From Spizellomyces punctatus DAOM BR117 (taxonomy: Eukaryota), in the NCBI GenBank assembly GCA_000182565.2, contig KQ257454.1: a DNA stretch of 64,000 bases, one strand, 5' to 3'. The notes below the pieces were generated by a model that was not told where the DNA came from, ran no database searches, and saw nothing but the letters and a program-made list of their open reading frames with translations. A program made the position numbers and the translations under genes. This document shows positions 11,274-36,234 of this stretch, piece after piece. Position 1 is the stretch's first letter; every line of letters starts with the position of its first letter.

Positions 11274-11283
11274 AAAAAAAAAA
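11274..11283 (-). terminator. Pol III oligo-T terminator of the tRNA
   Basis: T10 on the minus strand about 17 nt past the tRNA 3' end. Confidence 0.7.
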
Positions 11284-11299
11284 TACAAAGAAGACATGA

Positions 11300-11391: not shown

Positions 11392-11398
11392 TCGACAC

Positions 11399-12254: not shown

Positions 12255-13005
12255 CATCCTGACGTTCACACTCGCCTCACCCACTAGTCCACTAGAGCCA
12301 GCTCTGACACTAGGCCACCAGAGCATCCTGACCTTCATACTCGCCTCACCCACTAGGCCACCAGAGCGTCCTGACTTTGATGCCCGCTGTAGGAAATGGA
12401 TGGGAAACCCGCAATTTAAACCAAAAATGGGTATATTAGGATAACGTATGGAAATTGGTCTGTATGCCACAAGATAATGATGCGGTATATGTGTTTTTCA
12501 CCATAGTTTACTGTAGATTACACACACGATGAACTTGGAGCGATTTAGTATCCAAACTGCGTGGCTTAGCAGCCAATGCGCGTTACCTAGCAACCATAGA
12601 AAGCCGTAGTATAAGACAGACTTTTGCGACACAGGTAGAACCTTAGAACTATATAATAACATCTTTTTTCTGTGACATTTGCTTTCACATCGCTTGGGTT
12701 TATCAAAGAGACAGTTTAGGTCCGCCAGAGCAATATATGAGAGCGCCGTCGTAGAGAATAAGGTGCTATTAGTTCTGAAAACACACAAACTTGTGCCGAA
12801 TCACCTACAGTGGTTAACGACCCCGCATGCCGTCGAGTTTCTTGGTGTCAGAAACCTCGACATTCCCAAGTAATCCGTTCTCTGTGTGGTGAAAATACAA
12901 AGAAAGGGCGGAAGAACGCATTACGACACCGCCTCACCCACTATCCCATCAGAGCGTCCTGACTTTGATGCCCGCCTCACCCACTAGTCCACCAGAGCCG
13001 CTCTA
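12255..13005 (-). repeat. 43-bp tRNA-5'-half-like repeat clusters (12255-12387 and 12931-13005; further copies at ~11890, 16185-16262, ~20351, ~22487-22565)
   Basis: Unit gcctcacccactaggccaccagagcgtcctgactttgatgccc. Its reverse complement contains GCTCTGGTGGCCTAGTGGGTGAGGC. Confidence 0.85.
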
Positions 13006-13586
13006 ACACTATCCCTGTGGCCATCCCTATGTCCTGATACTGCCTGCACATGCCCCCAGTGCATAGCTCAGTCAAGTCCTGTCAAGTATGTTGGGAGTAG
13101 TGAACTTCAGATAATCGGACACATGTCCGAATGGCACGGCTGGGATATAGACACCCCTGGCCAATGCATCAGCTCATGTGAAAGATGCCTGCTACTCTCA
13201 TCGTAGCAGAGCATCCCTCGTCTCATCCTGTAGTCCAGCGTCACCTCGTCAATAGCTCATTTGAGTGCCCTCTGACTGTCGGGTCCCGCAATTCCCGACA
13301 AAGTGGATATCTCCTTGTGTCCTTTGTGTTTGAGCAAGATCAAATACACAGCCACCTTGCAAGAGGGGCCCCCTCTATAAAAGGCCAGGCCGGGGGTCGC
13401 GCGGCCACCCCCTCCCACAGCCGGGCACGTAGAGATTTTCGCCGGACACAACGAAGCGATTGGCCTGAAGAAGACTAACCATCTTGCTCGACTTGATGTC
13501 CCTAACCGCGCTTGGGTTCCTTGCGTGGCTCTGATTCACAAACCTTTACGGATTAGTGGAAGACAAACTTCAGGGGTTAGCATATC

Positions 13587-15129
13587 ATGCTTTCCCTGAG
13601 CGAACTTCCGCATATCGTCCTTATGAGCATCGCGCGGAACTTATCTCTCGCGGACTTGGTTCATCTGCGCTCCTGCGCAAGGGCTTTGCGGAGACGCCTC
13701 TCCATTGCGGATAGACGGCTCCATGGCCTGAGTTTGATATTTGCAGAGCTGGAGCGGATCTTTATTTTGCCGTCCACGGTAAGTTTGGACTATGTTGGCG
13801 TCTCTTAGGACGTCCGCATTTACTGTTTTCTTTTTTTTCCAGTTGCAACAATATGACGACATAGAGAAGACCTACGACGCTCTACAAGGGTTTCTCTCAA
13901 ATTTGTCCTACAAGCGGACACCCCTTGGCTGCGAAGTACTTTTCGAGGAGTATGATGACATCGAGATCGACGTAGGGTACAGGTTTCTTGAGAGATATTG
14001 GCGGTCTACCGTCAGGGTTATGGACTTCATCGATCCGTCAAAATCGGTCTACCTTACCGGTGTGAGTCGATTATCATGGAGCAGTGCAGGTCAAGAGCGG
14101 CTGGCTTACGAGGATTGCGCCATCTACATGCACATCGCTGATGGGCAATACGCACTGGTGTATCAAGGAACGGAGGGCAGCTTCCCTGGGGAGGCTCGCT
14201 CCGCATTGCCTACAGTCGCAAAGCAACTACATACTACGCATAAAGAGCTAGCAAAGGTTCTTGGAAGAGCCTTGTCAGCTTTCGCAGAGTCTTCCATCCA
14301 TACCGGTACCGGTGTTGGGCAGCATCTGAATTGGTCGGAGATGCAGCCAAAAGTCCTGGAAGAGCCCGAGGATTTTGTCATCGAATATGACTTGCAGCGG
14401 AAAAGGCTGACCGCTCACCTACTCAAGGGCTTGGAGGAACTGCGGCCGCGGTTGGATGACACCCATAGTAGGCTGTGGAACTGGATACGGAGTCAAGTCG
14501 ATCTGAAAAAAGCTGAATCACATATATTCTTTTTCCGAGGAATCTTTCGGGCTCTTCACGACAATTGGTGTCTATTTCACGATACAAACTTAGCACAAGA
14601 TACCCGTTCGGAAGCTTTTGCCTTCGATTGGGTCAAGAACAACATCGTCTTCACGTCCTTCAGCTGCAACAAAATAGCGCCAACAAAGACTTGGCCTCAT
14701 CCCGTTGAGAAACTCGAAGTGACTTTTACTGTGAACGGCTCAAAAAATCCAGTCACCTTCCAAAGACTTCTCTGTTGCCCTGATCGCAATGGAGGCTGGA
14801 ACGAACTGGTCTGCTGGTCTGACCAGATTCGGTGTCATCTGTTCGAGGCAGTGGCGAAGACTACGAGCCTCACTCTCGTTATTGGAGCGCATTCGCTGGC
14901 GTTTAGAGACATTGCGGGGTGCAGCGAGACATGGCGGAACGCTGATGTCTTCATGCTTGTGATCGCTGCGGTAGCTCTGAGCTTTGTAGCTTGGCCACCG
15001 ACACCATTCGAGCTGCGACGTGTTTACGTTGAAGGTGAAAATGAGACCTTACTGGAGATTCCACTTGAGCCTCCTCTGCGAGTGCAACCAATTTCCCCCA
15101 CTACAAGGAACTTAAGCACGGTAGATTGA
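13587..15129 (+). CDS. F-box domain protein with uncharacterised C-terminus (intron 13779-13842)
   Basis: N-terminal LSELPHIVLMSIARNLSLADLVHLRSCARALR is F-box-like. The GTAAGT...TTCCAG intron joins in frame to the long ORF. TATAAAA lies at ~13376. Confidence 0.75.
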
Positions 15130-16814
15130 CTTCTATTCATATAGAGGTCATATACGGAACCAACGAGTTGATACTTAAGCGCCTTGCCTTCACAGGCTGT
15201 AGAATCAGTTCTAGGTGAACGAAGGACACGAGGAAGTTTCGGGAATAGACTTTCAAAAGAATTTCTCTGCGGTACTGTTTAATAGACCTGGTGCGCATCT
15301 GCTACTTTCTTGGAGACCGAGCATGCAAAGCAAGAATAAATGAAATTACGGAATGCCGTTATTTGAGCGGGAGCGCCGTCTTTCCTTTGAACCGGCCGCG
15401 TGTTGTTAAGGCAAATAGAGCCGCCCGATATATTTCCGCTAATCTCGTTTTGAATGTGTTTGAAGTAGCTTCTGGACTCGGTGAGGAGCGTGGATTATGG
15501 TGCTCTCAATTCTTCTGGCAGGAGCCTAAAAAATTCTCCATACTTCCAGGAAGCCAGTATGAAGAGGCCGAGACGGGCAAAGCCGGGCGGTGACAGAGCG
15601 GGGTAAATGCGCTGTTGCAGTGCATGACAAAAGAGGTTCTCGGATGCAGGACACGCAGAAGGCAGCGTATTTTCTCGCGGGCAAGGCGGGGTCATGATGA
15701 CAGACGCACCATGGACAAGTTGAGCCATTCCTCACACCTTCCACACCTCTGACGCGCATGTAAATTACTGTACAAAAAGAACATGCCGGATATTTCTGCA
15801 ATAACTCTAGCTTTTACCGACTTCTCCATTGCCTTTCGGTTAGGGTTATCCACATCCCGCTGCTTTCCTTCTCGATCTCGCATCTCGCCTCGTACGGATG
15901 TATTCGTTCACTGGGATACCTCGACCCCTTCGTCGGTACAGGAACAACGATGATGGCGGCTATGGAATGTGCTCGAAATAACATCGGGGTGGACCCATGT
16001 CAGCCATACAAATATTGGCTCAAGGAGAAGGTTGAACCCGGTAGCGAGTCCAGGGAAATGACGGATATGAAGTTGTGGGTTACGTCCTTCACACGTGATG
16101 ACCGTTTTCAAAATGTGGTTGGTCGAAAAGAGGTCAAAAAATTGCGGTTTGAGTTTTTGACCACTTTCTGACTATTTTGTTCCCGGCCACCAGAGCGTCC
16201 TGACTTTGATGCCCACCTCACCCACTAGGCCCGCCCCATCTTGACTCTTACGCCCGCCTCATCCAACGACAACTAGTATGGAAGATTTAATCGAACAAGC
16301 ATAGCAGCGGGTTTGAACTGGTGTGTTGTGGTTGCCATCATTCAACTATTCACGTAGGCCATTCATCAAACCTGGTTAACGCACACAATGCAATGCCTGC
16401 TATGCTTTGTCCGATCAAATATTCGATCCGAGTGGTAGGCCCCTTTTTGACTTGTACAGCCGCCTCAATCACTGGACCACTACCAGTCGTATCAATGTAT
16501 CTACCATTGAAGCATAGCAGTGGTTGCTGACGAGCATGGTTACATTTGTGTATCGCCATTTTTAAGCTGTTGCTACAGTGGGATTATACCTGGTTAACCC
16601 TGGTGAATACATCGTTACGAGTATTATAACCTACATATTGGGGTGCCCAATGATTAAATGTGTAGGAGTGGTACACACTATGCATACAAGCAGGTCCACC
16701 CCAAGTGGCAGTGCCTGCAGTATCGGACATGTCTGGACTGACAACGACAGCGATCGGCGGGTGGCACAGTCATATCGACCAAGTACTGTATGCACATTTT
16801 GAGCCCTATCTATT

Positions 16815-17040
16815 CAATAACGCGCCCATCATCCTTAACGGCCTCCGTGCGCCTAGGCATAGATTCAACTAGTTTAAAGAGGTTTTCAGGAGTTATGGCC
16901 GCCCACTCTTCCTCCACGATGGCCTTCAATTCTTTTAAATTATGAGGATTTATGCCTATACACCCGTTTTTTCAAGACCGACCACAGGTCTTCGATGGGA
17001 TTAAGATCTGGAGATTGTGGTGGCCATGGGAGCAACGAGG
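16815..17040 (-). mobile_element. Tc1-like transposase C-terminal fragment, frameshifted
   Basis: LPWPPQSPDLNPIEDLWSVLKKRV, then after a frameshift NLKELKAIVEEEWAAITPENLFKLVESMPRR. SPDLNPIE is the Tc1 catalytic-Glu motif. Confidence 0.9.
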
Positions 17041-17276
17041 ACGTCATTCTGGAGAAACCACTGGCGTGAAACCCGGAATGTCTCAATGAGCGCGTTATCT
17101 TTGTTGGAAGAAGAAAACGCCTGGAACTGCGGCTTGATGCAATGTTTGGTTTTATGCTAGCCAGCATTGGGCACGACGATGGGAGAGGATGTCACATGAA
17201 GCACGTGATGTTCTTCACTAATGTGCACTAGCCACGCTGTGTGTTGAGCACAAGCCCAGACGGAATTCCAAGCGTC

Positions 17277-18386: not shown

Positions 18387-18834
18387 GATTGGCGAGTCGG
18401 ATCACCCTCTTGCTGTGGCAGTTGTTGGGACTGCTGATGTTTTGATAATGGGGGGAAACGACGCTGTTGTACCGAGTGATGGCTCTTTTCATCCACCGGT
18501 TGTTCTGCATGAGTTGTGCTTGATTCGCGGCATCCTTTTCGAGACATGGATTGTTGCAATGGACTGGGCAACCAGAAAGCACACAATTGCTGTCAAGATC
18601 GGAGCGAAAATGGCCACCTGACCTACCGTACAAATGAGTACTATCACGGCGGCAATCAGTATGATGGAGATAGTAAAGGTCAACACAACCCTCGGAGAAG
18701 CATTGGGGACGTTGGCACCTAAACAATGACATTTGCAATTTGTTGCGCGGTAGTAGGATCCAAAGACGGATCCTCTGCCTCTACGTCAATAAGATAGGCA
18801 TCGTTGTAGAGGTGTGAGGATAAAGGAATACTCA
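18352..18834 (-). pseudogene. Frameshifted small two-TM membrane-protein relic
   Basis: Stitching adjacent frames gives CKCHCLG..VVLTFTISIILIAAVIVLICTVGQVAIFAPILTAIV/AFWLPSPLQQ. At least two frameshifts are needed. Confidence 0.4.
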
Positions 18835-19093
18835 TCTTCTTTTCCCTTCTTGGTTACTTTATATCGCGAGATCCTCCCGTTTCTATAATTAGCTTTGGTC
18901 TGGCTCCATTTAAACAAGAAGCTACATATCCTTTGTAAGCACTAGGACAAAACATATCCACCAGTAGTTGAGTAGTAGACCACTAGAATATTGTATTACA
19001 AGTTATAGTTGTTTGTAAACTAGGGCTTTTGCTTCCAGTACCACATCTGTGCTGTCTTTGTTTTCGAAAAGCCTGCTCTTGCACTCGATTTAA

Positions 19094-19183
19094 TGATCGA
19101 GACTACTATAGTGTATTGGCAATAACAAATGTCACAACACAATACACCAGGGAATAAACCGCGCGACAACCGGTTCGGAAAAG
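19094..19183 (-). ncRNA. Fanzor1-type omega-RNA (75-nt scaffold 19183-19109 plus ~15-nt guide)
   Basis: CTTTTCCGAACCGGTTGTCGCGCGGTTTATTCCCTGGTG...CACTA matches the S. punctatus Fz1 scaffold as I recall it, at 35 of the first 39 nt and the terminal CACTA. Stems GAACCG/CGGTTT and GTGTATTG/CAATACAC are present. Confidence 0.8.
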
Positions 19184-19240
19184 CTAAGCTACTACTAGAC
19201 AATTATACACGCAATACGTAACGGTTGTTCTAACCGGATA
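19109..19240 (-). mobile_element. ORF-less ('ghost') Fanzor mini-element, copy 1, TA at both ends
   Basis: 57-bp leader plus omega-RNA scaffold. The boundaries are defined by homology to 34711-34833. Confidence 0.7.
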
Positions 19241-19665
19241 ATTGCCCACCACCACACACGGTCCCTACTAGGCCTTGATCTGGAACTCTTGATGGCATTG
19301 AAGCCAGACTCTTGCATCCAGGAGCGAATCGACTGGGCAGCGTCACAAGCCAGAGGATGTTCAGTGACAAGGCTTGGAGACTAAAAAAACTGCATGTCAG
19401 CGACAGAATGACAGAATGAAAAGAAATGCCATCAGTACTTACCAACCAAGCTCAACAAATGTGGCAGCATAATAACAGCTTTGTTGGTTCCGAGGCTGCA
19501 CTGGTTCCAGTTGGTTGTAATCGGGTGGGCGAGGTCCTCGGCACCAGAGCAGTACTCTCATGATGATGGACTTGAGAGTGCTGTGTGAGTGTTGGGCAGA
19601 TGCTTCGAGAGTCGAGGGATATAGAAACAAGATGGGGGGCAGACAACGGGGGGGTTTATATAGAA
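19230..19665 (-). pseudogene. Small spliced transcription unit or gene relic running into the ghost element
   Basis: TATATAAA at ~19660, ATG at ~19561 and a GTAAGT...GCTGAC...TTTTAG intron (~19442-19381). The spliced ORF stops inside the element's left end. Confidence 0.35.
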
Positions 19666-20947
19666 AAAAGAGTGGATAGATTGAGTCATGGAGCGTCATG
19701 CAGGTGGCAAACTGCAGAATATTCCTCTCATAGATGGCCGCAAAGGGATAGTAATTGCAATCCGTTCTTGGCCGCACCTTTGGACCCGTCTTTTTGTTTA
19801 TCTTCGTGAGGTTCACAATAAATGTGGTTAATTCAACTGGCTGCAATGCTCCGTGGCACTGACATTTCTATTTTCCCACACACTATGGATAAGCCACATT
19901 ATCTAATGTCCGCACCACGTCTGCTTGCCACAACCGAATCATCCACAAGGTCCCATTGATTTGCAATATTACCATGTTCGTTTTCTCATGTACAATGTAG
20001 AATGGTTCCCTCATGACGGTTTTCAGGAAATTCCCACAATTGTTCTCACTGCGCATCGCTCTGCGCATCTCTTGTCATCCGGGTCTTTCGCAAGGACAAT
20101 TGTCTTGGAATGATTGCCAAACTCGACATGTACAACGTGGAATGCATCTCGTTCAGGTCTCTTGCAGAGGCAAGTGTTTTAGAATGAGTACCACGCTCGA
20201 ATTGTACAATAATCGTCACAAACATGTATTCGTTTGAATGTTTTGTCGAGTCCGAGTACCACGATGAAAACCCGACGAGCATTTGAACGCGTGTGCAATG
20301 TACATCTCATGACGTTTTCCCCCAAGGTCTTGGCAGCCTTTTAATTCTACGCCCACCTCACCCACTAGGAGTCTAGGCCACTAGTGTTATACATCTCCTA
20401 TAAACCTATTCATCGGACACGCCAAGCACTGGTTTGATTTCAACTATACTTTCATAGGATATAACAAACAATAAACTGCAGCATCGTTTGCATTTTCCAG
20501 GTCTTCTTTCAAGTTCATCGCACACATGGGTTCACATTAGTTGTATATGTTTTGCCAGTATTTAGTTTGCCCACTCACTGAGTATACTTCCATTCGAACC
20601 ACTTTTCCGGTGGATATATCGATACGAAATTATAGTTGTTTGTAAATTAGGGCTTTTAGATTTGGTACTGGAGCATAGTGGGTGGGGGTGCGTTTTTCAG
20701 CTGCTATGCCGTCTACAGCTGGAATTTGAGTCCCACCCATACACTCAAAAACCCCTTTTGTAACAATTTCTATATCGAAAGACTTTAGCAACAAGAAAAA
20801 TAACCATGGGATGCCCTCAGGCAGGTCTATCACTCGCTAGACATTACATCGAGGAGAAAGGGACGGAGGGGTATCGCTCCTGAGGAATGGACTCCCTCGG
20901 CGCTCAAAGCGCTTGCGACTTGTCCCTCTAATTCACTAGGGAATTAG

Positions 20948-21372
20948 GGACAGTTATAACATTTCGTATGTTATTTACAAAGCTTCTTGGACAGTCTCAA
21001 CATTCCCTATGTTCTTTACAAAGCAATTTTGGGCTACCAGAGCAGGACAGCTACAATATTTTGTTGTTATTTACAAAGCTTGTTAAATTCATATCTACAT
21101 GTATCTCCCTATAGAGTAAAAGACTAATAAAGCAATGATCTGATGGACTGTCAATAATTAGTAAGTTTGCGAGCAGATTGCTTACCCATTTACCACTACC
21201 CATGATTGCAACCACTACAGCGGACAGATAGAACATTTTATGTTGAGAATTTCATATTTTATTTGCAAACCATTTTGGGCCACCACGGCGAGGACAGACA
21301 GAACACTTCTTATGTTATTTACGAAGCTCCCTGGACAGTCTGAACATTCCCTATGTTCATTACAAAGCGTTA
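20948..21372. repeat. ~40-bp degenerate repeat cluster related to the 38-bp array
   Basis: About six copies of ggacagNNNNaacattNNNtatgttatttacaaagc. Compare ggacagtaacaagattccgtacgttgttgatgagc at ~11623. Confidence 0.75.
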
Positions 21373-23744
21373 CTAAGGTGTTCCGAGCACACGCACAAAA
21401 AACTTTAGCTGCGTCGCCTATTGGCCTATTTACCGTTCAAGCATAGCAGAAACATTCCGTTACCCAGGTTTGATGGCAACCACAATATACCAGTTCAAAC
21501 CGCTGCTATTCCAGAGGTAAATAGGTCGCAGAGGAGGTCGCGCTGAAGGCAACGAAGGCGTCCAAACTTGCGATCGATCAGATCCTGCGTCAGTTATGAA
21601 AGACCGTAGAAACGTGGGCCTCCGTAATCTTGAGGGAACAATGGACACTCCGCTGTTCATATCGCCTGGAAAGTGGGGTTATTGTCACCGGCAATGTTGG
21701 GACGTGGCTTCTCCCAAATTGCTTTTCCGGTTTTTCTCGGCTCCTTGAAATCTGCCGTACAGTGTTTCTTTGGAGGGTAAGGAAACGCCCAATTATATTG
21801 TATTGTTGGGTATTGATGTCATCACACTTTGTAGATCGCGTTGGAAGCCGTTGCGCGGGAGGTCGGGTGTGATGCGATCGGCAGTCCAACCCGCGAACCT
21901 TTGAGAGTAGCTGAGACATATGCATAGAGGCCAAGAAAACCACTTGGGTGGATGACCCTGATGAGTAAGTTGGGTCACGCCAAGGGCACGCATTGCCATT
22001 TGCTCAACTGTCTACAGCAGCTAATTCACCACCAACTGAATTTGGACTACCACCACTTGAACCAGTTGGACCACCTAATGGGTACGGCTGGTAAACCACC
22101 ACCATTAACCATTAATACCACAGACAAGTCTAATCATAAATATATATATAAATCAGCGGCAATTGCCTTGGCATGATTACCATGTTTGTCATTTACAATA
22201 ATGGCAGAAACATGCATTCGCTTGAATGTTTTTGAAGGGAAGAACTAGGGGTTTTCCAAAAAAAAAAAAAGTCATGAGGCACACATTCCACATTGTAAAT
22301 GACGACTAAGATAGTCATTTCAAAACGATTGCTGCCGCAAAAGACCTGGAGAACATGCGTGGCAAACAGACTTTGTGGGCGGAGGTATTAGATAATGTGG
22401 CTTGTAAGTGTGTCGATCATTGAATTACATAACTGTTGAGCTATCAACAAGGCCCGACAGGTCTCTAGCTGTTCTACACTCTGGTTGCTAGGCCACTAGA
22501 GCGTTTGACTTCTACCCCCACTACACCCACTAGCATGTTATTCCTACAGCCCACTAGGCCACTAAAGAATACTTTGTGAGTTACTATTGCTTGTGAGTTA
22601 AGGCTTGTATTGTCGCTACCAAAAGGGTTGAATGGTACATAATTTTTTCAGCCGCCTCGCCCCTCATAGAGCATAGTGTGTGGAGGTGGTGGTTTCTAGC
22701 TACGTCGCGTCTACAGCTGTGATTTCAGTCCAACCCTATTCATTAGGTTGCGGGATGACATGAGGCAATAGGGTACAAGTGTTTATGGACAGATGGTCAC
22801 TATATGTCTCAAGGGAAAGTCGAGATAGTCTATACGACCCTGATCGTGTCAATGACTAGTATCAGCTTGATTCACGCATTGGCAGAATGATTTCTATGGT
22901 TACCCTAACCCTCTCCTTTAGATTCGGGGCTAGTTCATCATGTTATGTCTGCTCATGTGCTCATGGGCCAGTAGGAGATACCAACAACATTTTGAATCGC
23001 ATCTTCTTGTCGATTTGGGGCACGACAGCAAAGGGTAAACTATATGACAGAAATGGGGCATTTTGGCCAGCGGTCGATTCAGTTTGTTTATCAACGTTTA
23101 CTGCGACACTAAAGGATCTAATAATTTGTCGGAAAACTACCACATGGACGTTCGCCACCACTGCGTACGCAAACTCATAGATGCAAAGAGGGTTTCTGTC
23201 CAGGATATCTCATTTGCAAAGATGGTCCCGATACACTGACCACGCGCCCACCAAACCTACGGTTTGTCAAACACAGTCTCGCCATGAGAGTCGTGGGATA
23301 TATAGGTTTGTAGTGTTTTTATTGATGAGCCAAGATCATCTAGACAGTCTGAGGTTGGTGAGAATTGTTATAAATGATGGTTGTTTGTAAGTTAAGGCTT
23401 TTAGGATTCGCTACCCATGAACGTAAATAATCGTTTTTCAGCTGCGTCGCCCCTTTAGAGCATGGTGTGTTACAGTTGTTTAAAAGCAATTCCTTGCAAA
23501 ACATAACCAAGCTTTGAATAAAATAATACTTACAGCCAACACAAAGTGGCTTGAACAGCTCGAGTTGCAGTTCCATGCATTAGACTAGTTTCTGTGACAT
23601 TTACAGACTCTAAAGACATTCTTTGGTAGGATGATGTGATGGATGGAAAGACATGCGCTAAATGTACAAGAGATGAAAACGCACAGCCTTAATTCCAACT
23701 GCTAACAACCATCTTGTTCACGGGAATATCCTTCCGATCAACGT

Positions 23745-24480
23745 CTATTGAGCAGACTTTTGTAACTGTGCTATCTCTAAGTGCTGATCAAGGTAAGAGT
23801 GTTTGAATACAAGAGCTGCCGCACCTTCAGTTTTAAAATTAAACAACCAGACTTCTAAAGACTCTGATATTGCTGTTTTTCCTTTGGTTTGGTTCACGTC
23901 TGCCAACACGACTCTAAAAATACATACAACTTGTATCAAGCTATTCACCCGATGGTTGCTTGAATAGACATGTATCTTAATGATCGAGATAGCAAGCCAC
24001 ATCAAATACCGACTACGTTCCCCACTGTACATGACAAACCTGGTAATAATTGCAAAACAGTCGTACCTTGCAGACTATGGCGACCGTTTCGGCCATCAAT
24101 TCGGAATTCCTTCTCCAAATGTTCAGCCTGCAGCGAATCTGCAAGTTCCAGATTTCCCGCTTAAAAGGGCCATCAACTTTGGATTCCTTCCCCAAAAGTT
24201 TCAGCTTGGAACGATTGTGCAATTTGCAGAAAAACCGAGTGCAGAGTGCTGCGGCAACTTGTTCTGCTTCTGGCACCTCACCGCTTCTTCAAGCCCTGGA
24301 GTCTCTGCAGGCTCCACTGCTTCTGCAGGCTCTGCAGGATCCTCAAGCTGCTCTTCGTCTACCCACTCCTCATCCCCACTCCTCATCTTCTAGTACGCAT
24401 CCCTCGTCTAGACGCTCCACTTCCTCAAATTCTGGAAAGCGCCCAGCTCTTCCTCTACGTACAATTGTTGTGCGATCGCT
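23745..24480 (-). pseudogene. Frameshifted gene relic with an acidic E/P/A-rich tract and internal ~75-bp duplication
   Basis: EEWVDEEQLEDPAEPAEAVEPAE tract. Two copies of LQIAQSFQAE/LELADSLQAE...gatggcc. Coding sense switches frames. Confidence 0.45.
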
Positions 24481-26513
24481 ACCACGTTTGTTGTGTGCAA
24501 TGGACAATGTGCGATGTGGGTGTGCAAAATGGAATATAAATGTAGAGTAAATTGCAATGCAACGGACAACTGTCGAGAAAATGGCTGGGAAGTCGGAAGG
24601 CAGCAGGGGTGCCATATAAGTAGTGGTCCAGAGAGCTACAGTGGTCTATATTTGGTTGGATTGGAAGCTTCTGCGAAAGCTGAGAACTCCTAAGCTCCTG
24701 TGAATGTCCCTGGAGGGCGCTTCGGCTTTAGCGCTTCTTCAAATGCTGGTTGAGCAAGCCAGCGTGAGTTCATTCTGGAACGATTGAATTGGACTGCGGT
24801 GTAGCTTGTTTGATAATTAAGTGACGAGATGGGATGGCGAGAACATCCGATCCAGTTTTGGTTTAGGTAGCTTCAGTTATTTTATCGGCTGCAAGTAGAT
24901 GTAGAGGGCAATTATAATGCTCGGGATATGAATTTGCAACGATGAATTGGCTTTTCACGATGGAGCAATAACTGTGCTCAATCATTGACCTGGATTATTG
25001 GCAGCAAACAGCCCAAATACGGCAAAAGATGAGAGAGAACTACACACTATCCATCGAGTGACATCGATTAGACATATCTAAAAACCAAGGTGGCAGCTAC
25101 AAACTGGCACGCGATGCACAAAATCGTGTGATGAAAAACTTTTCACACAAGCTTGATGCACTGCTGATATAGTGCAAGTAACGAAGTCGCGATGCAGGAG
25201 AACAGATCTTCAAGTACTTAACGATACGTTTTTTGCGTGTCCTGGAGTAGATCAGAGGCGAGGATATGCCATTGTTGTAGAGTGTTTTTATAATGGCGTC
25301 TCCTCATTTGCCGACTCTGAACTTTCAATGCATTGATCAATCAAACTTGCAATCACGTAATCTCTGACAACGTTGGCAGACTGAAAAGCATGCGAAGAGA
25401 TGCAGAAAGGGTTAAGATTCATGGAAAAGGGGAATGCTGTGATAGGATATCATAAGAACACGGCAGATATCATCAACAGGATCCTCATTTGATGTTTTCC
25501 TCTCCGAATGTCATTAAGCTGATATATCCTTGAACCTTAATGAATGTGTGCGTTATAGTGTATGCACTTTTCCCTAAACCCTCGCTCGTTTGATACCCAA
25601 AATATGTAGTGTATGATGCTCGCATAAATTGTCTCCCACACTTACGAGATAAGCTTTTTGGGTTTGTACGGAAGAGCTTAATTACACGTCATTCGATAAT
25701 GGAATATTCGATGGTGGAATTAATTGAACACCGCGTCCAATATTGAATACTATAAACGAGGCATCGACCCAGCGCCGTTTGTTAAGACTATGCGTTAAAA
25801 TATTTTACGAAGACGGACGACGTGATGATCATGCTTCATATCCCTCGGTTGAAAATTTGGAGAGCTTTCAACCGTCCTTGGAGCCAGAGGATAATACATT
25901 CTCCATTAGTGGTGAGTAAGTATAGTGGTTTGGGGCAGTCCACGGCTTAACTATCCCAATTTACAACACCTGGTCTAGAAAGCTAGTGATTGCCAATACA
26001 ACTGTCAATGAGAAGCACCTGGTTCTTACAAGCTCAGCATCATATATGTCGTGAATTCCATGTTGGAAACATGTTACTATCACCCTAACAGATGTGGACA
26101 TACTAAACATGACCACTTCTCTGTGCAGCGTCTAAAAGAGAGTAGATGGCGTATCATTCAAAGCTGTGTTCAAGAGTATTAACCAAAGAAATCTTGTCCC
26201 GTTCGCGTGCTGTAAACAAGGTCACTCAAAGCTGGACGCCTAGACTTCACTACCGGAAAAGCTTTCTTGTTGTCGCCCCGCATGTTTGCCAAACAGACGA
26301 CTTGTATTGCACTACCATATATATTAATAGTGACCCCACTGACATAAAAGTTCAAGGAAACAAATCTTTCCGAGCCCAGGCTTATGGACGCACAATTCTA
26401 ATAATTAGTTTATACCAACAATGTACGGTCAACATATGTCCACCCTAGGCAATGCCTCCTATGCAGCCTCCCTCCTGGCTGTTACTTCAATCTTTGGATT
26501 TTGCTCAATCTAA

Positions 26514-28420
26514 CTAAAAATCTTGCCACTCATCATCAGAGGTGCCCACTTGGGTGCGGGCGCGTGATGTGACGGAGCCGCTATCTCGTTGTATACCCGA
26601 ATCAAGTGTCACAGCGGGTGTACTTGATACAGGAGTGGGGTTGTTGCCCGGTGACCACTCCGAGCTGGGTTTATCCCAATCGCTCCAGAGGTCGTCCCCT
26701 CCTTGACCGTCCCAGCTGTTGCGCAAAGCGCCGGTATCGTACCCGTCGGTCCCATATGTTGTTCCCTCTGGTCCAAATCCGCCCTGCTGTGCTGGGGTGT
26801 AGCCACCTGCTTGGTTGACGAGGTTCGTTGCAAAATTGAACCCTTTCTGCCCAGCTTCGGCCACCTATGAATGCCAGCCGTTAGCACAATGTAGGTTGAC
26901 GTGCTTGCACAAGTTGGGTACTCACCCTATTGCCCAATGTTGAGACAGACCGCGTTATATTATCCTTGAAATTGGGATCCCGTACAGCCGTAGCGGTCGG
27001 TTGAATGACGTTTTCTGCCACCTACGAAACATGGGGATATGTACATAACGACGAGGTTGCTAACGATAAAATCCGGTCAAATGATACCTTTTGCCCAACC
27101 ATTTCAGCCCCTGATACAGCCAGCTTCGCACCCTCTACCACCGTATTCCCTAGTACCCCTACCACGGAAGTCACAGTGGGTGCCAGGAAGCTCCATCCTT
27201 TTGACAATGCGGCAAGCGGGTCCTCCAAGAGATTAGCAGACCCGGGATTATTGGCTGGTGTATCTAGAATCCACGTGAATTAGTGCACAGCGAGAGGATA
27301 GCAGGTGCGTTGCAAACTCTACTAACAGTTGGTATTTCCGAAACCAGCATACCGCCCACCTTGGCTTGGTGGTAAATCTGCTGAGCGGTTAGAGTTCTCC
27401 TGGCCTTTACGCTGACAAAGGAGGAATAAGGTGCCTGACTAAAAACCGATGACCGCAGTCAGAACATTCTCTTACATAAAAATAATCTTCATTCCTTGCT
27501 TTATCGGGAAGCGCCCCCGTAGTGGCGCTCTGCGTACCCGTATATCCCCCTGCCGAGCCCCCACTCCCCATGCTTCTCGGCACAACAGGCGATCCATTAG
27601 TTCGCGGCGTTCCAGTCGGACGAGGAGAACTGGTGCTCGATCGCGGCGGCGCTGTCCATGTTCGACCTTCACACTCGGCAGCGAGCTAATACAGGCAGTT
27701 GATGAAATAGATGTTTGGTTATAGAAGTAATAGTAGTAGGCACCTTTTCTTTATACTGCCGCGCAAATTCGCTGGATATAATCGTCGGCGGTTAGCTTGG
27801 CACCATAGGACACAAGGAAGACTGCCGTTCGAACCTCTGGTATTTATCCTAAAAAAACGATATACAAATATACCGGCTCAGACAAGCATCGAGCAAGATG
27901 CACAAATATTCTTTCTATCAACATACTTGAATGGTCATTCCCTCAGAATAATCTTGAATTGGTACGGCACATGAGCCACGTCATGTCAGGTTGCTTAATA
28001 AATCCACGCCAACCAACCTGGATGCGACTTGAAAAAGGCCAAGGCCTTTTTATTTCCACCGAGCTGCATCCTCCGGACCTGATCCTCACTCCACTTATCC
28101 ATCGTCACTGACCGTACGAAACTCACATGAACGCCCTGCGCAAACCCGAAAAATTTAAGCATCGTCAGCGCAGGTACCGCCAGTAGCTCTCTCATGTGGC
28201 AACCCTCTTACCAAACTCCTATGTACGCCCGAACACTCCAAGCAGAAGAAAATGCCATAAGTCACGCTCGCCCATTGGGGATGATGTGCTCCTGAACACT
28301 GTAATCAGCATCCGTTGCTCCCCTTCATCAACGACAATTCCACTATATACCACAGTCAATGCATATCTTGTTATCCTCTCTGCGCTGTAGCTCCAATAAT
28401 GTTTGTTTCAGAGGGTCCAT
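26514..28420 (-). CDS. GCS1: ADP-ribosylation factor GAP (ArfGAP1/Gcs1-like), multi-exon
   Basis: [61 protein letters not shown] zinc finger, [18 protein letters not shown]-like region, and DDEWQDF end. Confidence 0.92.
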
Positions 28421-28509
28421 AGTGCCTTGGGAAGAGATGTGAAATTGTACCTTCAACGAACATTTGGTTTTAGCGGCTATCCCAAGTCGGCGGTTGCGTA
28501 ATCTCTTAT

Positions 28510-28515
28510 CACGTG
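28510..28515. promoter_or_regulatory. E-box TCACGTGA in the divergent ArfGAP/28843 promoter (similar CACGTG at 17202, 32609, 32622, 34912, 36359)
   Basis: CACGTG recurs in short intergenic regions upstream of start codons. Confidence 0.45.
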
Positions 28516-28842
28516 ACAGTAATCGAGAGGGCCGATCGCGCTAAGGTCAGCGTTATGCTGGTTGACCTTTCCTCACCATTGAAAAACTATTTATCTCGAG
28601 TTCACTGTTCAAGCTGGCGATTACCCAGTACTTTTTAATCTCGAGCGCCATTTCTGATAGAAGCACCTAGTATCCGTACTTATCGAAAACTTGGAGAACC
28701 GGCATTCTGCTCTTGCGCAGCGCAGCATTCAAGAAACGCTGTAGGAGTCGATAACTCGGCTCCGAATGTACTTTAAGCCTGAAACCCCTCATTTCCCCCA
28801 CCAACCTCCCGGTCTCCAGCGCAGCGATCCATTTTTAAATCC

Positions 28843-29688
28843 ATGATGTCGTCCGCAGGACCCGATACCGAAGACCTATCAGAAACACAAAGTTCTGCAC
28901 CAGCTCCTACATCCTCTGTTACTCGGTCATTGAAGAATATACGGCACATAGATAGAGAAGAGGGGGAAGGTGATTCCACACAGGTTGCGGAGATGGAGGG
29001 TGTAGCAACGCGCGCGCGTGGACTGAAAGTATGTTTTTTTGACGAATGGGGGTGTGGTAATGTGTATGAGATGTTTACCGGAAACTCAACTTAGCGTAAA
29101 CAAGCACTACAAAATATGCCCAGCAAAAAGGCTAAACGAGGAGCAACAAAGGTAGTATCCTCTATTGCCTCTTCTCTATATTTAAAAGCCAACTCATAGT
29201 TGGATCCCAAGAAATCAACAAAACAACCGCCAGGTGCTCGCGAAGCAATACTTGCTAAAGAACTCCGATGCTTCAGCAACGATACAAAAGAAGTCATGAA
29301 ATGGAGCGTATGGATGCAACAGCTAGGGGAGCAAATTCGGCATATGGAGGTGCTAAACGTTTGTTTCACTGACACGATTATTTTTGATTGTAACATCCGC
29401 TGGCATCAGAAACGCTTCTCGACCATGTCATCGCAACATAGCAATACCCGCGACAACGCCACAAGAACTTTTCACAAGCGATCACAATCCCTAATTAAGG
29501 AGTTGGAGACACTCCAGACACGCACAGAGCAATTGTCGGACAAAATGAGACAGGACGTTATAGAACCGCTCGGGGAGTTGCAATCAGAGGAGAGAAGAGC
29601 AGATGGGGGAGGGAATGGTAATGGTAATGGACCAGGGAGATCGGGCGACTTGAGACGTAGAGGACAGGCTGTAAATAGTATACAATAG
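28843..29688 (+). CDS. Hypothetical spliced protein with a C-terminal coiled coil
   Basis: GT-AG introns join 28843..29029, the RKQALQNMPSKKAKRGATK exon and ORF 29200..29688 in frame. No family recognised. Confidence 0.55.
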
Positions 29689-30171
29689 AGAACACCCCGT
29701 ACGTTGGTGTCAAAAGTGTTACATGCCCAAGTCATCAATGAGGCATAACCAGAAAGCGGTTACCCAGAACCAAGATCACGTCATGACATAGAAACTCATA
29801 CGAATAATCTCTTCCCAAAGCTCCCCCATACACCTAGCTATACACCCAACACGGAACAAAGCGCATCCGCGAAACCAGAATGTCCTGCATCTACCGACCT
29901 CAGACCTCATCCGCGTCGTACACAGCCACAGCGTACTGGCAAAAGCATTAGAGCCCGGCCAACTGATAAAGACGCGTTTCTCTCCCACCGACGATCAAAA
30001 CATTTCCCAACCCCACCCTTACATGCCCACCAGCCCAAAGAGCAAACAGAACTGCTCGATTATCACCCCGCAACGCACATTCTTAGCAGGTACGCGACCA
30101 CCTGGCGCACTAATCCCGATATGGACGATACCCAACTGGCCAAGCCAATTACCTGCCCGACAGACACCACA

Positions 30172-32204
30172 TCAGAAACCTCGCCCCGCCCCGCCACTGG
30201 GTTTTCTTGCTTGTTGTCCAGCAGCGCTTCCACCTTGCATACTCACACCAGGAGTCGCCACCCGTGAACTATTCCGGGTCATGGCCGGATCACCGTAACC
30301 ATATTGGGCGTTACCGTGTCCTGGACTTCCGGCTTGGTAATAGTTAGGGTAGGCGTACTGTTGCTGTCCCGTGTAGGGGGCACCCGCAGCGTTTGAACCA
30401 TAATTTGTTGCTGCGGTCGTAGCGGGACGCTGGGCGCTTCCGGTTGTTGCCGCTGGTCGGCGAGCAGAAGCAGCGGCGGGTTGGACAGCAGGGCGAGCTT
30501 TCTCGCGGGACGAATGGTGGTGTCTTTCAACGAGGTACATCAATATAACATCATCACATTACTAATCCACAGGTCAAATTCTTACCTGTCGTCACCACCT
30601 TCTTCGGTCTTGACTTCTCGTCCAGAGGCATCCCTTCCTTCTTGCTTCATAAAGAAAAGCAATATTGTTAGCGAGGAGACCATGGATGGTTTCGCAAATG
30701 GCTCAGCCTTCAATGGACTTCGACCTACTTGGTATTTTACAACTGTCCAGTCGAAGACGTAGTCGTAATGGTATCCTTCACGAATAAAAAGATCTCGGAA
30801 AAGTTTCCGCAAGTAACTGTAGTCAGGTTTGTCGTCAAAGCGTAACGAGCGTGTGTAGTTGAGATACACGGAGAACTCATTGGGGAAACCTCTGCAGATT
30901 ATGGGATGAGCTAAAATAACGGCGAGCGGAACGTGGACCCACCGAACCTACCTGCACAGAACTTCTGTTGGGGTCGTCATCTTTTTTTCCATAATTCTGT
31001 CGTATTTTTGCTTCTTCGTGGCAGCCTTCAAGCCTTGCCATGGTAGTGCTCCTCGACAGAAATACATGAGGACATAACCGAGCGACTCTAAATCATCACG
31101 CCTCGATTGTTCTGCGCAAAAACCATCAGTCAACTAAACCGGCGAGTATTCGCTGTGGCCTAAGAACGCGGTGGCTTACCAACTCCCAGGTGAGTATTAA
31201 TACTCGCATAACGGGCCGTCCCTGTGAGATTTTTGTTTTCTTTATAGGGGATATGTAGGTGTGTCTTTGGATCCCGGTACTTCTTTGCCAGACCGAAATC
31301 AATCACATTGACTTGGTTTCCACGCTTCCCCAAGCCCATCAAGAAATTATCCGGCTTGATATCCCGGTGTATAAAATTTTTGGAGTGGATGTACTCAATG
31401 CGGGAGATCTGGTCGAAAATGAGATCAAAATTCAGAGAACGGGAGGGTTGCAAAAGTATCATGAATACGCACCAACTGATCCGCAAGCAGTAGAACAGTT
31501 TTTAATGTGAATTTCCGACCGCAGAAGTTGAACAAATCTTCCAGACTGGGCCCCAGCAAGTCAATAACCATGCAGTTATAGTCGCACTCTATCCCGAACC
31601 AGCGCACGAAAGGAATTCCAACTGAAAGAAGTAATTGGTCAACCATGCTGCGCTAGTTCAATCGACATAATTAAGGAAGTGTCAAACTTACCGCCTCCTG
31701 CTAAACTTTTGTACACCTTTGATTCATACTCTAATTGCGGATGCTTCGCCTTTACAGATTCCAATTTGATGGCAACCTCCTCCCCATTGATGATGTTCGT
31801 ACCTGGTAAGAGAAAGGAACAGGTGATGGAGTCAGTCATCCTGCTGCAACGAAGAAGGCACGACGGATTGGGTGCCGCACGGAATTATCTCCATCAATTT
31901 GTCAATTTGACTCGCGCGAAGAGAAGTGATGAAAGCATGCGCTTTGACCTCCAAGTCTGCTTCCTGCCAATCAAACGCATGTGATTGGACTCCTCAGAAG
32001 GTAGACCTCGCTCCATGGAGTTCCCATCCTCTCTCATCAAGTGACATCAACCAACGTCATCCATAAACAAGTACCTAAGTAGATATCACCAAAGCTTCCA
32101 CTTCCGATCTTTCTTCCAATCCTGAATTTGTTGCCGACTCGAAGGTCCATCAATGCATGGGGAGGGCCCTGAGCTGACGACCCAGAGCCTTGCTGAGCCT
32201 GCAT
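30172..32204 (-). CDS. HRR25: Casein kinase I (delta/epsilon, Hrr25/Hhp1-like), multi-exon
   Basis: [81 protein letters not shown]. Confidence 0.97.
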
Positions 32205-32995
32205 TTTGGGTTGTAAAAGGGATGCGAGAACCTGATGGGCAAAGCGTAACCGCCGAGGCTATATATCTAAAGAAAGGGCGAGATGAAATGATATTGCATC
32301 ATTAGATTCCCAAATCATCGAGCACGGCAAACTATGCACCTTTCTTGGCTAACAAGAAAGGGGGTCGCGCCACCTACCCCGCAATGGTGGGATGTGCGCC
32401 AGGAAGTGGGATGTGCCTGGCAAGACAGCGAGCACAGTTCTCTGTCTCTAACGCCGAGAAATGTAAAATGTTTCTGCCGTCGCGTCCTCCAAAGATTGGG
32501 TCTTTGCTTCCAATGGGGGGTGGTTCGTCAGGTGGGTTGCCCTGCTTCCCACTGTGCGCCGCTTTCAATTTCACCCCCCCAGCCAAACAAAGTGTGTGAC
32601 AGTAGAGTCACGTGTATTTATCACGTGTACAAGGTGACAGGTCCAGCGTCATCCTTGGAGTTTCCAACTTGTAAAACAAGGTTTGCAAACGACTGCTGAA
32701 CTTGGAATTGATTTGCGATAGATCTTGGCTGTTCATTGGCGGAAGGCTGCCTAATGTGAATATTTGTTTGTATCAGCTACAGTCTCATAATAATAAATAG
32801 TGTTATAACATCTGACATGTCCTACTGCAAGCAGTTCTCCAAGGCTTTTCTGTGAAGGGGGTCCATATGGCTCACAAGTCCGGCTTGTGCATGGGCTTGC
32901 TGGCTGCGTTGCGTAATAATTCTGTGACTACTCTTACCTAGGATGAATTGAAATTGAGCCAAACTGCCTGTAATTTGGTGAAATCTATTTTACGG

Positions 32996-34204
32996 ATGCT
33001 GGAAGGCAACCAGTCTAACGCTGAAGGCAAGGACAAAATCACAGTCATTGATGCCGGCGCTGCTTCGGTGAGCAAGGACTAGAAGAGTTGTGCAGAAAAT
33101 CAATTATATCAGACAGGTTTCGACTCCCTCTAATTCCAGGTGCAAGGCCGTCGTCCACATCAAGAAGACCGGTATACTATTATCCCGCCCACAGCTGTCC
33201 CTGGCTCCCAGCGCAAGGTGGCATTTTATGCGATCTTTGACGGACAGTAAGCTGGTTTCGATGACATTATATGATCCGCGTGTATCTAGCAGATTACTGA
33301 TATCCCCATAAAGTGGCGGCACAACGGCTGCAGAACATGCTCGCACCCATCTGCACAGAATTCTAGCTCTCCTTCCCGAATTTCAAAAGGGAAAGTACGA
33401 AGAAGCTATCCGCATAGCGTTCCGTAGAGAGGATGAAGAGCTTTTCAATACCCTCGTCTTAGAAAGGGGCCAAAAGAAGGGTGGTACAACTGCCGTCATC
33501 TCCATTGTCGATGTGACAGCAGCGCTTCTTGTCGTTGGAAATCTGGGCGACGCTCGGGCAGTTTTAGGTATTTTAGATGATAGGAAGCATTCCGGGTATA
33601 GAGCGGTGAGTACGGGATCTTCATGCTGATGAGTGGACTTGGAGCTCAACATTGGTCATGTAGGAACGGTTAACAAAGGATCATAAGCCCACTGAACCAG
33701 AAGAAATGGCAAGAATTGCGGAGGTTGGAGGAGAAGTCAATCCTGCCTCTGGGAGAATTGGTAGGATCGTAGCACTCGGTATCCAAATTTCACCATACTG
33801 ACAGTCTGCAATCTCTTTCAGGAGCCGTAAATATATCTCGCGCATTGGGAGATTTCCGATACAAGCTGCCTCTGACTCGGACTGATCAGAACGATCCCCT
33901 TGTGTCTGAAGCTGTCCGTCCAGGGGCCAACGTCAAAGACGATTTCGTGTCCGTTGAGCCACACATCACGAGTAAACACCTTGACCCAGCAGTACATCAT
34001 TTGCTCGTGCTGGCTAGCGATGGAGTGTGGAATGAAATGAAAGATCAAACTGTCATTGATCTCGTTGCCGCTGGAAGGCAGAAAGGATGGGACGCACATA
34101 CAATTGCAAAAGCGATTGTGAAAACTACAGAGAAAAACCTGTACAGCGATAATGCAACGTGTATCGTGGTGATTTTTGGGAAGCCGAGGCCAGTGGAGGA
34201 GTGA
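32996..34204 (+). CDS. Protein phosphatase 2C (start uncertain), multi-exon
   Basis: QGRRPHQEDR, AIFDGH/GG across an intron, GNLGDARAV, LTKDHKP, SRALGD, LASDGVW, DNATCIVV. Confidence 0.93.
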
Positions 34205-34710
34205 GAATGACGGAAGCCTGCAGTCCTCTTTTGTCAAAATGCGCAAGTATATAGTGTGCTAGTTCCTGCGGCATTGCGGTCATTTGAATAAACCCCATGA
34301 TCATGAAGATGAACATGCAAACCTGTTCACTTGTCGTGATGGCTGCAATTACTGCCCTTGCGGCGATCCAATGACTGGACATTCTCCTCCTGTAGCACAT
34401 GTTTTTCTATATAAACCCACTTTCTCTCTCTTTTCCTTTTGATCTTTATCCTCGACTATCAGGAAGAAATCTTAGGAAGGATGCCGATCTGGTGCTGAGG
34501 ACCTTCACTTTCCAAATGACCCCAACAATCAGCAAACATTGCCTTTCAATGCTGCCGCCGTGATCACAAGTATGTCTTAATAGAATCTTTCCATACTTAT
34601 TATCCAGTCTAATCCTGGTTTCCGAGTATCCAAATATCCTAGAACTGACAAACTCTGTCGTGGTAGCCGGAGCACTCGTAGGAATCCTCTCACGGTGCTG
34701 AGTGCAAGGT

Positions 34711-34833
34711 TACCCAGTTGACCGACTGTAATGTATTGCATGCGTAACTAAGCCCATTAGTTGTGGTTAACTGTATCCAGGCTGGTTGTCACTAGACCAA
34801 AGGTGTTCATTCTTCGCTGGGGCCAATACACTA
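34711..34833 (+). mobile_element. Decayed ghost Fanzor mini-element, copy 2
   Basis: Colinear with 19240-19109. The leader matches at 29 of 41 aligned positions, mostly with transitions, followed by tcc..g/ctggttgtc, ggtgt and an identical 3' end gccaatacacta. Confidence 0.65.
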
Positions 34834-35001
34834 TCGAGTTCCTTGCTGCCTCGAACGCACTGGGATCGGAGAATCATGATTACGTGATAGAAGGTGGTTG
34901 CAGCCATGAGTCACGTGCCCTGACCAGAAGAAAACCATAGTTTGGAGCTAGTGGTGGGCAACTGGGCATTTGGCACATTACCTTGGCTTATTCGACCCAC
35001 C

Positions 35002-36234
35002 ATGGCCAGTAAAACAAACAATGCCACTGCAGTCCGCAAGGAGGCTTATGAAGGACTGGTCAATCTAGAAGGTATCGATCCCGGCCTTCTCGAGTCGAAG
35101 CCACTTCATGAAGTTCAGCTCGATGCTTTGGTTGTCCTCAAGATCTTGAAGCACTGTCGAGAATACGCTCCTGTGACCGCCACTGGACAGCTTCTGGGAA
35201 TAGACGTTACTGGAACGCTTGAAGTTACCAACTGCTTCCCCTTCACATCAAAGTCACATGAAGACGAGGGGCAAGATGAGATGGACGGGGCCGAGTACCA
35301 ACTGCAAATGTTGAGATGTTTGCGCAAACTCAACTATGATGCGAACACTGTTGGATGGTACCAATCGACATACCTGGGCTCTTTCTGGAACCAGTCCTTG
35401 ATTGAGACCCAGTACAATTACCAGAAGACGTTCGCTCAGAGTGTTGTCATTGTGTATGATCCTACTCGCACCACTCAGGTAAAGACATCTATATAACAAT
35501 AAGATGTCCATCGGTTCACAGTCGCTAAACCTTTCATGTGCTTGCGCTAATAGGGGAATCTCTGCTTGCGCGCCCTCCGACTGTGTGACGGGTTCATGGA
35601 GTTGTACCAGAACCGCAAGTTCACAATGGAAAGCCTCATTCACAACAAGCTCACTCCCACATCGATTTTCCAGTCGCTCCCTATCAAGATTCGCAATTCG
35701 CATCTTCTCACTGCCCTCCTCCACGAGCTCGACGAACAGATATCCTTCCCGCCGTCTCTCGAAAACTCCCTAAGCTTGCCTTCCTCCACCTACACTCCCC
35801 GCATCCCAACGAACATATCTCCGTTCTCCCCTAATTTGGATAAACTTGAGCTGGGTCTGGAAAGTTATTTGGAAAAGCATTTGGAATACCTTGGAGAAAC
35901 TGTTGAGGAGCATGGACAGGAACAATGGAGGTGGCAAGGCTGGCAGCGAAACCTGCAGAAAGAACAGCAGCGGTTGCAACAGACTATCAGCAAGCGGAGG
36001 TTGGAGAACTCCTCGCGTGCGGCGCAAGGTCTCCCGCCAGCGTACACGGAAGAGGACCTTCAACCCACAAGTCAGACCTTGACAAAGATACTAGCGAACG
36101 AGCCTAGCCGCTTGGAGAGCTTGATCATTACCAACCAGATTGATACGTATTGTAAACAAGTAACTCAATTCGCTGGACCAGGATTGACAAAGATGTTCAT
36201 GACCAAAGGTGTAAGGGTGGAGGGAAAGGAATAG
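35002..36234 (+). CDS. EIF3H: Translation initiation factor eIF3 subunit H (MPN domain), one intron ~35479-35553
   Basis: VQLDALVVLKILKHC, GQLLGID..LEVTNCFPF, YQLQMLRCLRKLNYDANTVGWYQS, EPSRLESLIITNQID. Confidence 0.95.

Follow-up and report, generated by a model that had tools for sequence, protein, structure and literature searches.

Spizellomyces punctatus is reported to carry 42 Fz loci and 134 ghost Spu-1 loci (Saito et al., Nature 2023, PMC10432273). As described there, ghost loci are bounded by 30-nt inverted repeats (IRs), with a CA conserved upstream of the 5' IR; they share a conserved stretch of ~550 nt and lack an Fz ORF. Their 75-nt scaffold spans the 3' IR, and a 14-15-nt guide comes from the flank. 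The TAM of SpuFz1 is CATA, and mutation of any TAM base abolished cleavage. In addition, ghost RNAs are bound by SpuFz1 and their scaffolds allow cleavage in human cells; no transposase is reported within the Spu-1 IRs (PMC10432273). A re-analysis gives 126 unique ghost scaffolds of 74-76 nt (PMC13434818), and the SPu-1 Fanzor1 transposon has been described with 33-bp TIRs and putative TA TSDs (Bao and Jurka, Mobile DNA 2013, PMC3627910). In our literature search, ghost Fanzor elements were found only in PMC10432273 and PMC13434818.

The window analyzed here, a stretch of 64 kb, is eukaryotic nuclear DNA, from the chytrid S. punctatus or a very close relative, with spliced genes, an intron-bearing tRNA-Tyr and the eIF3h, PP2C and CK1 genes; the CK1 and eIF3h genes have canonical GT..AG introns that are skipped by contigs of public runs. 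Other ORF pieces in the window, besides those of PP2C and eIF3h (JAB and eIF3h_C domains), match RNA 3'-phosphate cyclase, phosphatidylserine decarboxylase, and PPR, WD40 and TRAPPC11-type domains. An earlier note had described two short colinear stretches of this window as copies of a mobile omega-RNA cassette, with these bounds:

Copy A: 34711-34833 (+)
Copy B: 19109-19240 (-)

We consider it highly probable that copy B forms the right end of a ghost Spu-1 element of 777 bp and that copy A is of the same kind, old and decayed. The evidence for membership consists of 18 nucleotide identities along with the fold, IRs, TAM and two protein names, as compared with the published description of the family.

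Homology between copies A and B

Both stretches read as the earlier note had written them, and their colinearity is real. The leader identity that it had given, 29/41 with differences that are mostly transitions, also stands, as counting by eye in the alignment gave 9 transitions, 2 transversions and 1 gap. GGTTGTC, GGTGT and an identical 12-nt end, GCCAATACACTA, are common to A and B. Taken alone, the 130-nt similarity is only marginal. The separate BLAST HSPs of A against B have an E of 1.9 each, which is chance level, and the chained local score is 22.8. In comparisons with background tiles, the observed score was reached by 0/2797 under soft, chained and global scoring and by 11/2797 under a stricter scheme. 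The best match of A within the window is B (Gumbel E over the window, 0.009 to 0.1). MAFFT pairwise alignments of A and B mis-register the copies and were left out of the counts.

An inverted-repeat search around B found imperfect 27-nt arms at 19108-19134 and 19860-19886 that are 78% complementary, which places copy B at the end of a longer unit, here called element E:

19109-19885 (-): very probable ghost Spu-1 element E, 777 bp from IR to IR, without a Fanzor ORF; copy B is its right-terminal 132 nt
19884-19887 (-): CATA left junction, formed by the flank CA and the first TA of the element, the same as the published SpuFz1 TAM
19094-19108 (-): predicted 15-nt guide of the omega-RNA of B, in flanking DNA, placed from the published scaffold and its 14-15-nt extension

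The terminal 30 positions of E match at 21/30 between the IR arms. The left junction of the element reads tcCA followed by TAGTGTG, giving CATA, and TA is present at both junctions of both copies A and B.

When the 777-bp element was compared with the window by BLAST, a colinear series of matches was found upstream of copy A, in addition to the one at its right end. The matches and the unit that they outline are as follows:

E37-64 = 34271-34298: BLAST HSP
E218-234 = 34402-34418: BLAST HSP, 17/17 identical
E338-354 = 34488-34504: BLAST HSP
E766-777 = 34822-34833: BLAST HSP
34252-34833 (+): probable decayed ghost Spu-1 relic, 582 bp, colinear with E; copy A is its right-terminal 123 nt

A chained local alignment of E (19885 to 19109) with 34201-35100 scored 75.4, with an aligned part of 34271-34833. 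In a background of 264 chunks, the mean score was 16.4 (sd 2.6) and the maximum 26.4, corresponding to a Gumbel p of 8e-14 for the observed score. In the global alignment of E with the copy A element, 394/542 columns are identical (~73%), and 67/148 of the mismatches are transitions, an enrichment over one third (binomial p 0.0017). The left end of the copy A element starts with TAGTGTG at 34252, as in E. Based on the whole-element colinear score and this shared start, we conclude that copy A lies at the right end of a copy of 582 bp that has decayed; the similarity of A and B is the tail of a longer, whole-element homology.

These results bear on the alternative that A and B resemble each other by chance, or through a regulatory motif in common such as the CCAAT box in GCCAATAC. 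Such a reading could draw on the E values of the single HSPs, on the poor MAFFT alignments and on the location of A in the eIF3h upstream region. Given a whole-element score nearly three times the background maximum and the excess of transitions among the mismatches, we regard it as extremely unlikely. Elsewhere in the window, 56028-56081 (-) has 39/54 identity to the leader region of B with a score of 20; this candidate third copy was dropped, as its E over the window is ~0.15 and it lacks a colinear extension.

The extent of the homology also revises the anatomy of the unit. The similarity was thought to stop at TA on both sides, which holds for the right end, but at the left end homology runs ~460 nt further. 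The proposed MITE-sized unit of 125-130 bp is thus replaced by an element of ~580-780 bp between inverted repeats, and the statement that there are no long TIRs is true only of the 130-bp unit, since E has 27-nt imperfect IRs. It is very unlikely that leader and omega-RNA nonetheless form a separate, self-moving, MITE-like family of 125-130 bp, bounded by TA on both sides. The exact right boundary, contig loose ends at 19109 and 19241, and the highest summed contig depth on the terminal 133 nt would fit such a cassette. Against it are the leftward extension of the A-B homology, the letters behind the loose ends at 19241, which are still window-like and indicate that other copies also continue there, the position of the TIR partner of the right end (19860-19886 rather than the leader), and the published ghost loci, which run from IR to IR with ~550 nt between (PMC10432273).

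Family, omega-RNA and transcription of the element at copy B

Element E resembles ghost loci in these features: an IR pair of ~30 nt, the CA/CATA junction, a related 75-nt scaffold at the 3' IR, the lack of a Fanzor ORF, and many copies. The single ORF of at least 80 aa within the 777 bp (19439-19867 (-), 142 aa) has no Pfam family and no nuclease domain, and a PDB search with the small protein of the element gave no Fanzor match. No Fanzor-like ORF was found in the window by Pfam on 20 ORFs, including 15/18 of those of at least 170 aa, and PDB phmmer on three large Pfam-less ORFs of the window gave no Fanzor chain. The earlier description of the element as non-autonomous is therefore sound, as no nuclease gene lies within it. 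Its suggestion of a possible new, separate family does not hold: the element corresponds to the published ghost Spu-1 elements, with the SpuFz1-bearing Spu-1 element as partner. The ghost Spu-1 family is already published and is not new, and copy A is a decayed member of it.

The translation of 19198-19380 (-) matches only SPPG_08830, an uncharacterized protein of Spizellomyces punctatus DAOM BR117, with 90% identity; a second paralogue is SPPG_09412. In Rfam, both copies gave nothing at E<=10 except a chance SNORD103 match at 34896-34963, and over the window at gathering score tRNA was the sole match. A metagenome scan with an exact 24-mer from the right end of B gave 0 matches. Other identities considered for copy B were an H/ACA snoRNA (with ACA three nt from the end) and a 5S rRNA or SINE, each without an Rfam match and in disagreement with the TIR structure, and CACTA or Helitron ends, for which orientation and motifs do not fit.

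Several other repeats occur in the window. A 31-nt repeat is present four times (19000-19030, 20627-20657, 22578-22608 and 23372-23402), and a diverged duplication of ~600 bp adjoins the ghost element (20150-20740 and 22150-22740, 76-82% identity). Another family, at 10400-16400 and 21471-21501, has inverted and direct copies of 31-40 nt (for example, 10447-10486, 12205-12244, 16310-16351 and 21471-21501), and repeats of the CACTAG/CTCACCCACTAG type lie at 11889-12998, 16180-16239 and ~20340-20400. The last two groups are probably the "long-TIR elements" from which the cassette had been set apart. In the region 11300-11740, the intron-bearing tRNA-Tyr (11300-11391 (-)) abuts a 38-nt tandem-repeat array (11359-11662 and onward).

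Contigs of four public runs were mapped on 18500-35600; X1, X8 and X9 are spliced and X2 is unspliced (depth 2-3), and we take the former as RNA-like and the latter as DNA-like from this splicing state. Contigs of the four runs pile up along E (19109-19800). At 19199, contigs at least 80% alike reach a summed depth of 180.7 in X2 (5 contigs; flanking contigs have depth 2-3) and of 68,261 in X1 (18 contigs), a measure that is not a copy number. Loose ends of contigs fall exactly at 19109, and X1 contigs continue past this position into unlike letters. The ghost family of copy B is multi-copy and well transcribed. Contigs also cover the B scaffold and cross 19109, although contigs as such do not show RNA ends. 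In X2, one contig (depth 2.2) bridges 19105 and 19891, with 7 other letters in place of the whole element; this would fit an allele that is unoccupied or excised in that sample, though the joint differs from a clean TA empty site.

The right-end block of copy B was compared with the SpuFz1 omega-RNA, with the scaffold numbered 1-75 from 19183 down to 19109 in a register fixed a priori:

19109-19183 (-): omega-RNA scaffold of the SpuFz1 ghost type, 75 nt; stem 1 at 8-28, linker at 29-34, stem 2 at 35-75

The test set consisted of 18 nucleotides named by position in the published work: U5, C6, C7, U16, G17, U18, C19, G20, G22, A29, C32, C34, U35, G37, C40, G70, A72 and A75 (PMC10432273). In B, 16/18 of these match (Poisson-binomial P 1.7e-8), and its register is the sole one of 127,850 in the window with more than 13 matches. 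The two misses, C40 to U40 and G70 to A70, pair together in stem 2, and the U40-A70 pairing makes them one compensated change. The scaffold has a minimum free energy of -23.4 kcal/mol, and 0/500 shuffles were equally stable. Its minimum-energy fold reproduces the published arrangement: stem 1 (8-28), an unpaired 6-nt linker whose bounds are exactly 29-34, and stem 2 (35-75). The proposal that the right-end block is an omega-RNA is thus borne out by the named nucleotides and by the two-stem fold. Among the blocks common to A and B, GGTTGTC falls in the stem-loop 1 region, GGTGT in the 5' strand of stem 2, and GCCAATACACTA in the 3' strand of stem 2. By its sequence, copy B is a ghost Spu-1 element carrying an intact-looking omega-RNA gene.

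The 15 nt past the right end differ between the copies, as expected if a flank-derived guide is gained at each insertion, in agreement with the earlier proposal of a new guide per insertion. Both copies keep GTATTGC in the leader, at 19209-19222 (-) and 34729-34738 (+), and this motif, which had been described as an inverted echo of the right end, complements the 3' strand of stem 2, and base pairing between the two could compete with that stem.

Based on the published system, a mechanism can be proposed for the element. It would be transcribed toward its right end, the last 75 nt forming the scaffold (stem 1, the 6-nt linker and stem 2), and transcription would extend 14-15 nt into the flank, with the flank part serving as guide. 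The RNA of B would carry the guide 19108-19094, and SpuFz1 made elsewhere in the genome may bind it, acting in trans. The loaded SpuFz1 could then cut DNA in which CATA is followed by a match to the guide; CA, TA and the right flank together would be the joint expected at the element's own empty or excised site.

Three further features lie inside the element:

19200-19240 (-): the "leader" of the earlier note, internal, 17-57 nt upstream of the scaffold; its counterpart in A is 34711-34750
19381-19442 (-): 62-nt GT..AG intron, from spliced contigs
19656-19663 (-): TATATAAA box in the sequence, ~95 nt upstream of the first ATG (19561)

The leader had been taken for a promoter or a transposase-binding end. 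It is neither a promoter nor an element end: it sits within the element, immediately before the 75-nt scaffold, and one annotated paralogue, SPPG_08830, reads it as the C-terminus of a small ORF. Leader frame 1 reads ...AIIRLEQPLRIACIIV and then a stop, and the gene model SPPG_08830 reads alike. The joint 19380 to 19443 (CT..AC on the plus strand) is present in contigs of X1 (3), X8 (1) and X9 (1) and was not seen in the unspliced run X2. The block around the TATA box, 19652-19668, is 17/17 identical in copy A; with 73% identity over 542 columns, ~0.65 runs of this kind would be expected anyway, and we make no claim of selection on it.

It is conceivable, and we suggest it tentatively, that ghost elements are self-contained Pol II-type transcription units with a TATA box, a leader of ~100 nt, a 62-nt intron, no stable reading frame, and the omega-RNA at the 3' end. 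Such units, if real, would account for the native expression of Fanzor-less guides. We favor a non-coding spliced transcript ending in the omega-RNA over a protein gene, because the post-intron frames differ and the protein collection holds only two such proteins.

The alternative is that the repeat unit is a small protein-coding gene family (~105 aa, CaaX-like CIIA/CIIV), its leader kept as code for the C-terminus. Consistent with this, a TATA box, an ATG and a spliced intron are present, the SPPG_08830 model ends in ...RLEQPLRIACIIA (CaaX-like, ...ACIIA) while frame 1 of the window copy ends in ...ACIIV, and the exon 1 indels among those listed are of 3 nt or sum to 3, where those upstream of the TATA box are of 1-3 nt, mostly 1-2. 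The post-intron frame, however, is frame 2 in the window copy and SPPG_09412 and frame 1 in SPPG_08830; only 2 family proteins occur in a collection of 5.8 billion proteins, despite more than 100 loci; and no Pfam or PDB relative was found. A protein-coding family is therefore quite unlikely, and the non-coding transcript remains our preferred reading. The small ORF at 19198-19561 (-) has a CaaX-like CIIV end, which is CIIA in SPPG_08830. It is probably not a real protein, as its post-intron frame varies among three copies, and a pheromone-like CaaX protein was dropped for the inconsistent reading frames of these copies.

The decayed copy between the PP2C and eIF3h genes

The relic that ends with copy A sits between the PP2C gene and the eIF3h gene, and has the following parts in addition to those given above:

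34250-34253 (+): left junction in the sequence, TATA and not CATA
34772-34833 (+): degenerate omega-RNA scaffold, ~62 nt, aligned to the B scaffold
34834-34848 (+): would-be guide of copy A, in the flank, assigned by position only; unlike the flank of B

At the left end, TAGTGTG is all that remains of the IR, and the ends of the relic are no longer inverted repeats (4/30 match). Both in the fixed register 34759-34833 and by alignment, A keeps 11/18 of the published positions, a count reached by 139/127,850 registers in the window. Those kept by alignment include, among others, U5, C6, C7 and U16-C19, and G20 is changed to A. The scaffold has lost 13 nt, with a linker of 3 nt and a shorter stem 2. 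When folded, two stems are possible, of which stem 1 has the UGUC loop found in B and stem 2 is short, and this fold is no stabler than those of shuffles (z +0.39). A covariance model built from the scaffold of B did not find copy A at E<=10. Thus, of the features of ghost loci, the relic has end-to-end homology and lacks the IR pair, the CA/CATA junction and a 74-76-nt scaffold with the contact nucleotides. The earlier view of A as a second, decayed copy is upheld by its colinearity with E over 582 bp, its shortened and mutated scaffold and its TATA junction.

Stem 1 of A is as stable as that of B despite 11 changes in 21 nt, and only 1.9% of 20,000 simulated B mutants with the same number and type of changes keep a stem 1 as stable. 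This hints that stem 1 may have been maintained for some time after the lineages of A and B split.

Copy A is most likely a dead relic. The alternative is that it is alive, belonging to a ghost lineage that has diverged and whose shortened omega-RNA remains functional with a Fanzor protein of this genome. In keeping with this, stem 1 has persisted although both of its sides have changed, the UGUC loop and the 5' UCC are identical, SpuFz1 in human cells can do without the distal part of stem 2 (40-70), the part shortened in A (PMC10432273), and the published ghost scaffolds include several divergent clusters (PMC13434818). Such activity is nevertheless unlikely: G20, which is A here, pairs with C6 at the active site in the structure (PMC10432273); the linker is 3 nt instead of 6; any TAM change abolished cleavage (PMC10432273) and the junction of A is TATA; the covariance model from the B scaffold gave no match; and a scaffold of ~62 nt compares with 74-76 nt in published ones (PMC13434818).

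In the four runs, X2 bin depth on copy A is 1.06, with one listed contig of depth 2, there is no pile-up of family contigs (at least 80% alike), and no contig of the spliced runs is among those listed within 34312-34963; all three observations come from contigs, which show presence and not absence. A spliced-run PP2C contig (33821-34311) extends 107 nt past the stop codon (34204), 60 nt of this lying in the left part of the relic, and the eIF3h contig begins, at 34964, ~130 nt downstream of the relic scaffold. The relic is now within the UTR and promoter space of these host genes.

If ghost elements are transcription units as tentatively proposed above, the relic would indicate that they last until stem 1 has accumulated changes on both sides, and that they are eventually absorbed into host 3'UTR and promoter space. 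As a dead relic, copy A offers a view of the long-term fate of such elements beside housekeeping genes.

Comparison with known systems

A reading from raw sequence alone recovered a eukaryotic omega-RNA element in this window; it was right in kind and wrong in anatomy, namely in the size and left boundary of the unit, its TIRs and what the leader does. As corrected here, the mobile unit runs from IR to IR over ~600-780 bp with the leader internal. The Fanzor system itself is published, so these results add little to it; the unit with a TATA box and an intron is one possible addition, which bears on how ghost omega-RNAs are transcribed in the native host.

The closest match is with the ghost Spu-1 elements. 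Like the element at copy B, they are flanked by IRs without a Fanzor ORF, have CA upstream of the 5' IR, a 75-nt two-stem scaffold and a flank guide, and occur in many copies. They differ from it in length, at ~610 bp (~550 nt and two 30-nt IRs) compared with 777 bp, and the IR arms of E match at only 21/30; unlike them, copy A is a decayed relic outside the published scaffold range of 74-76 nt. The TATA box and spliced intron found here are unmentioned in the main text of PMC10432273, where a word search found neither TATA nor intron. The SPu-1 Fanzor1 transposon shares with both copies the host and TA at both junctions, and with B the terminal inverted repeats; at ~2.1 kb it encodes a 633-aa Fanzor protein, whereas the elements of A and B encode none (PMC3627910).

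Tc1/mariner-type MITEs are like A and B in having TA at both junctions and no transposase, and like B in having short TIRs. They differ in that the element here would carry a functional RNA gene, and no transposase is reported within the Spu-1 IRs (PMC10432273). A relic of a DDE_3 (Tc1/mariner-type) transposase lies at 16940-17191 (-), ~2 kb from the ghost element; no TIR or terminal motif in common was found between the two.

A prokaryotic IS200/IS605 omega-RNA cassette was also considered and rejected, as the window is eukaryotic and the element has TIRs. Bacterial non-autonomous IS200/IS605 derivatives keep omega-RNA-like ends, and their nuclease-less guide RNA is served in trans. IS200/IS605 elements are prokaryotic, transpose as single strands and have neither TIRs nor TSDs (PMC3627910). 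The element here differs from these derivatives in being eukaryotic and in having TIRs, TA junctions and an intron, and it is like them in that a guide RNA is encoded at the end of an element without a nuclease.
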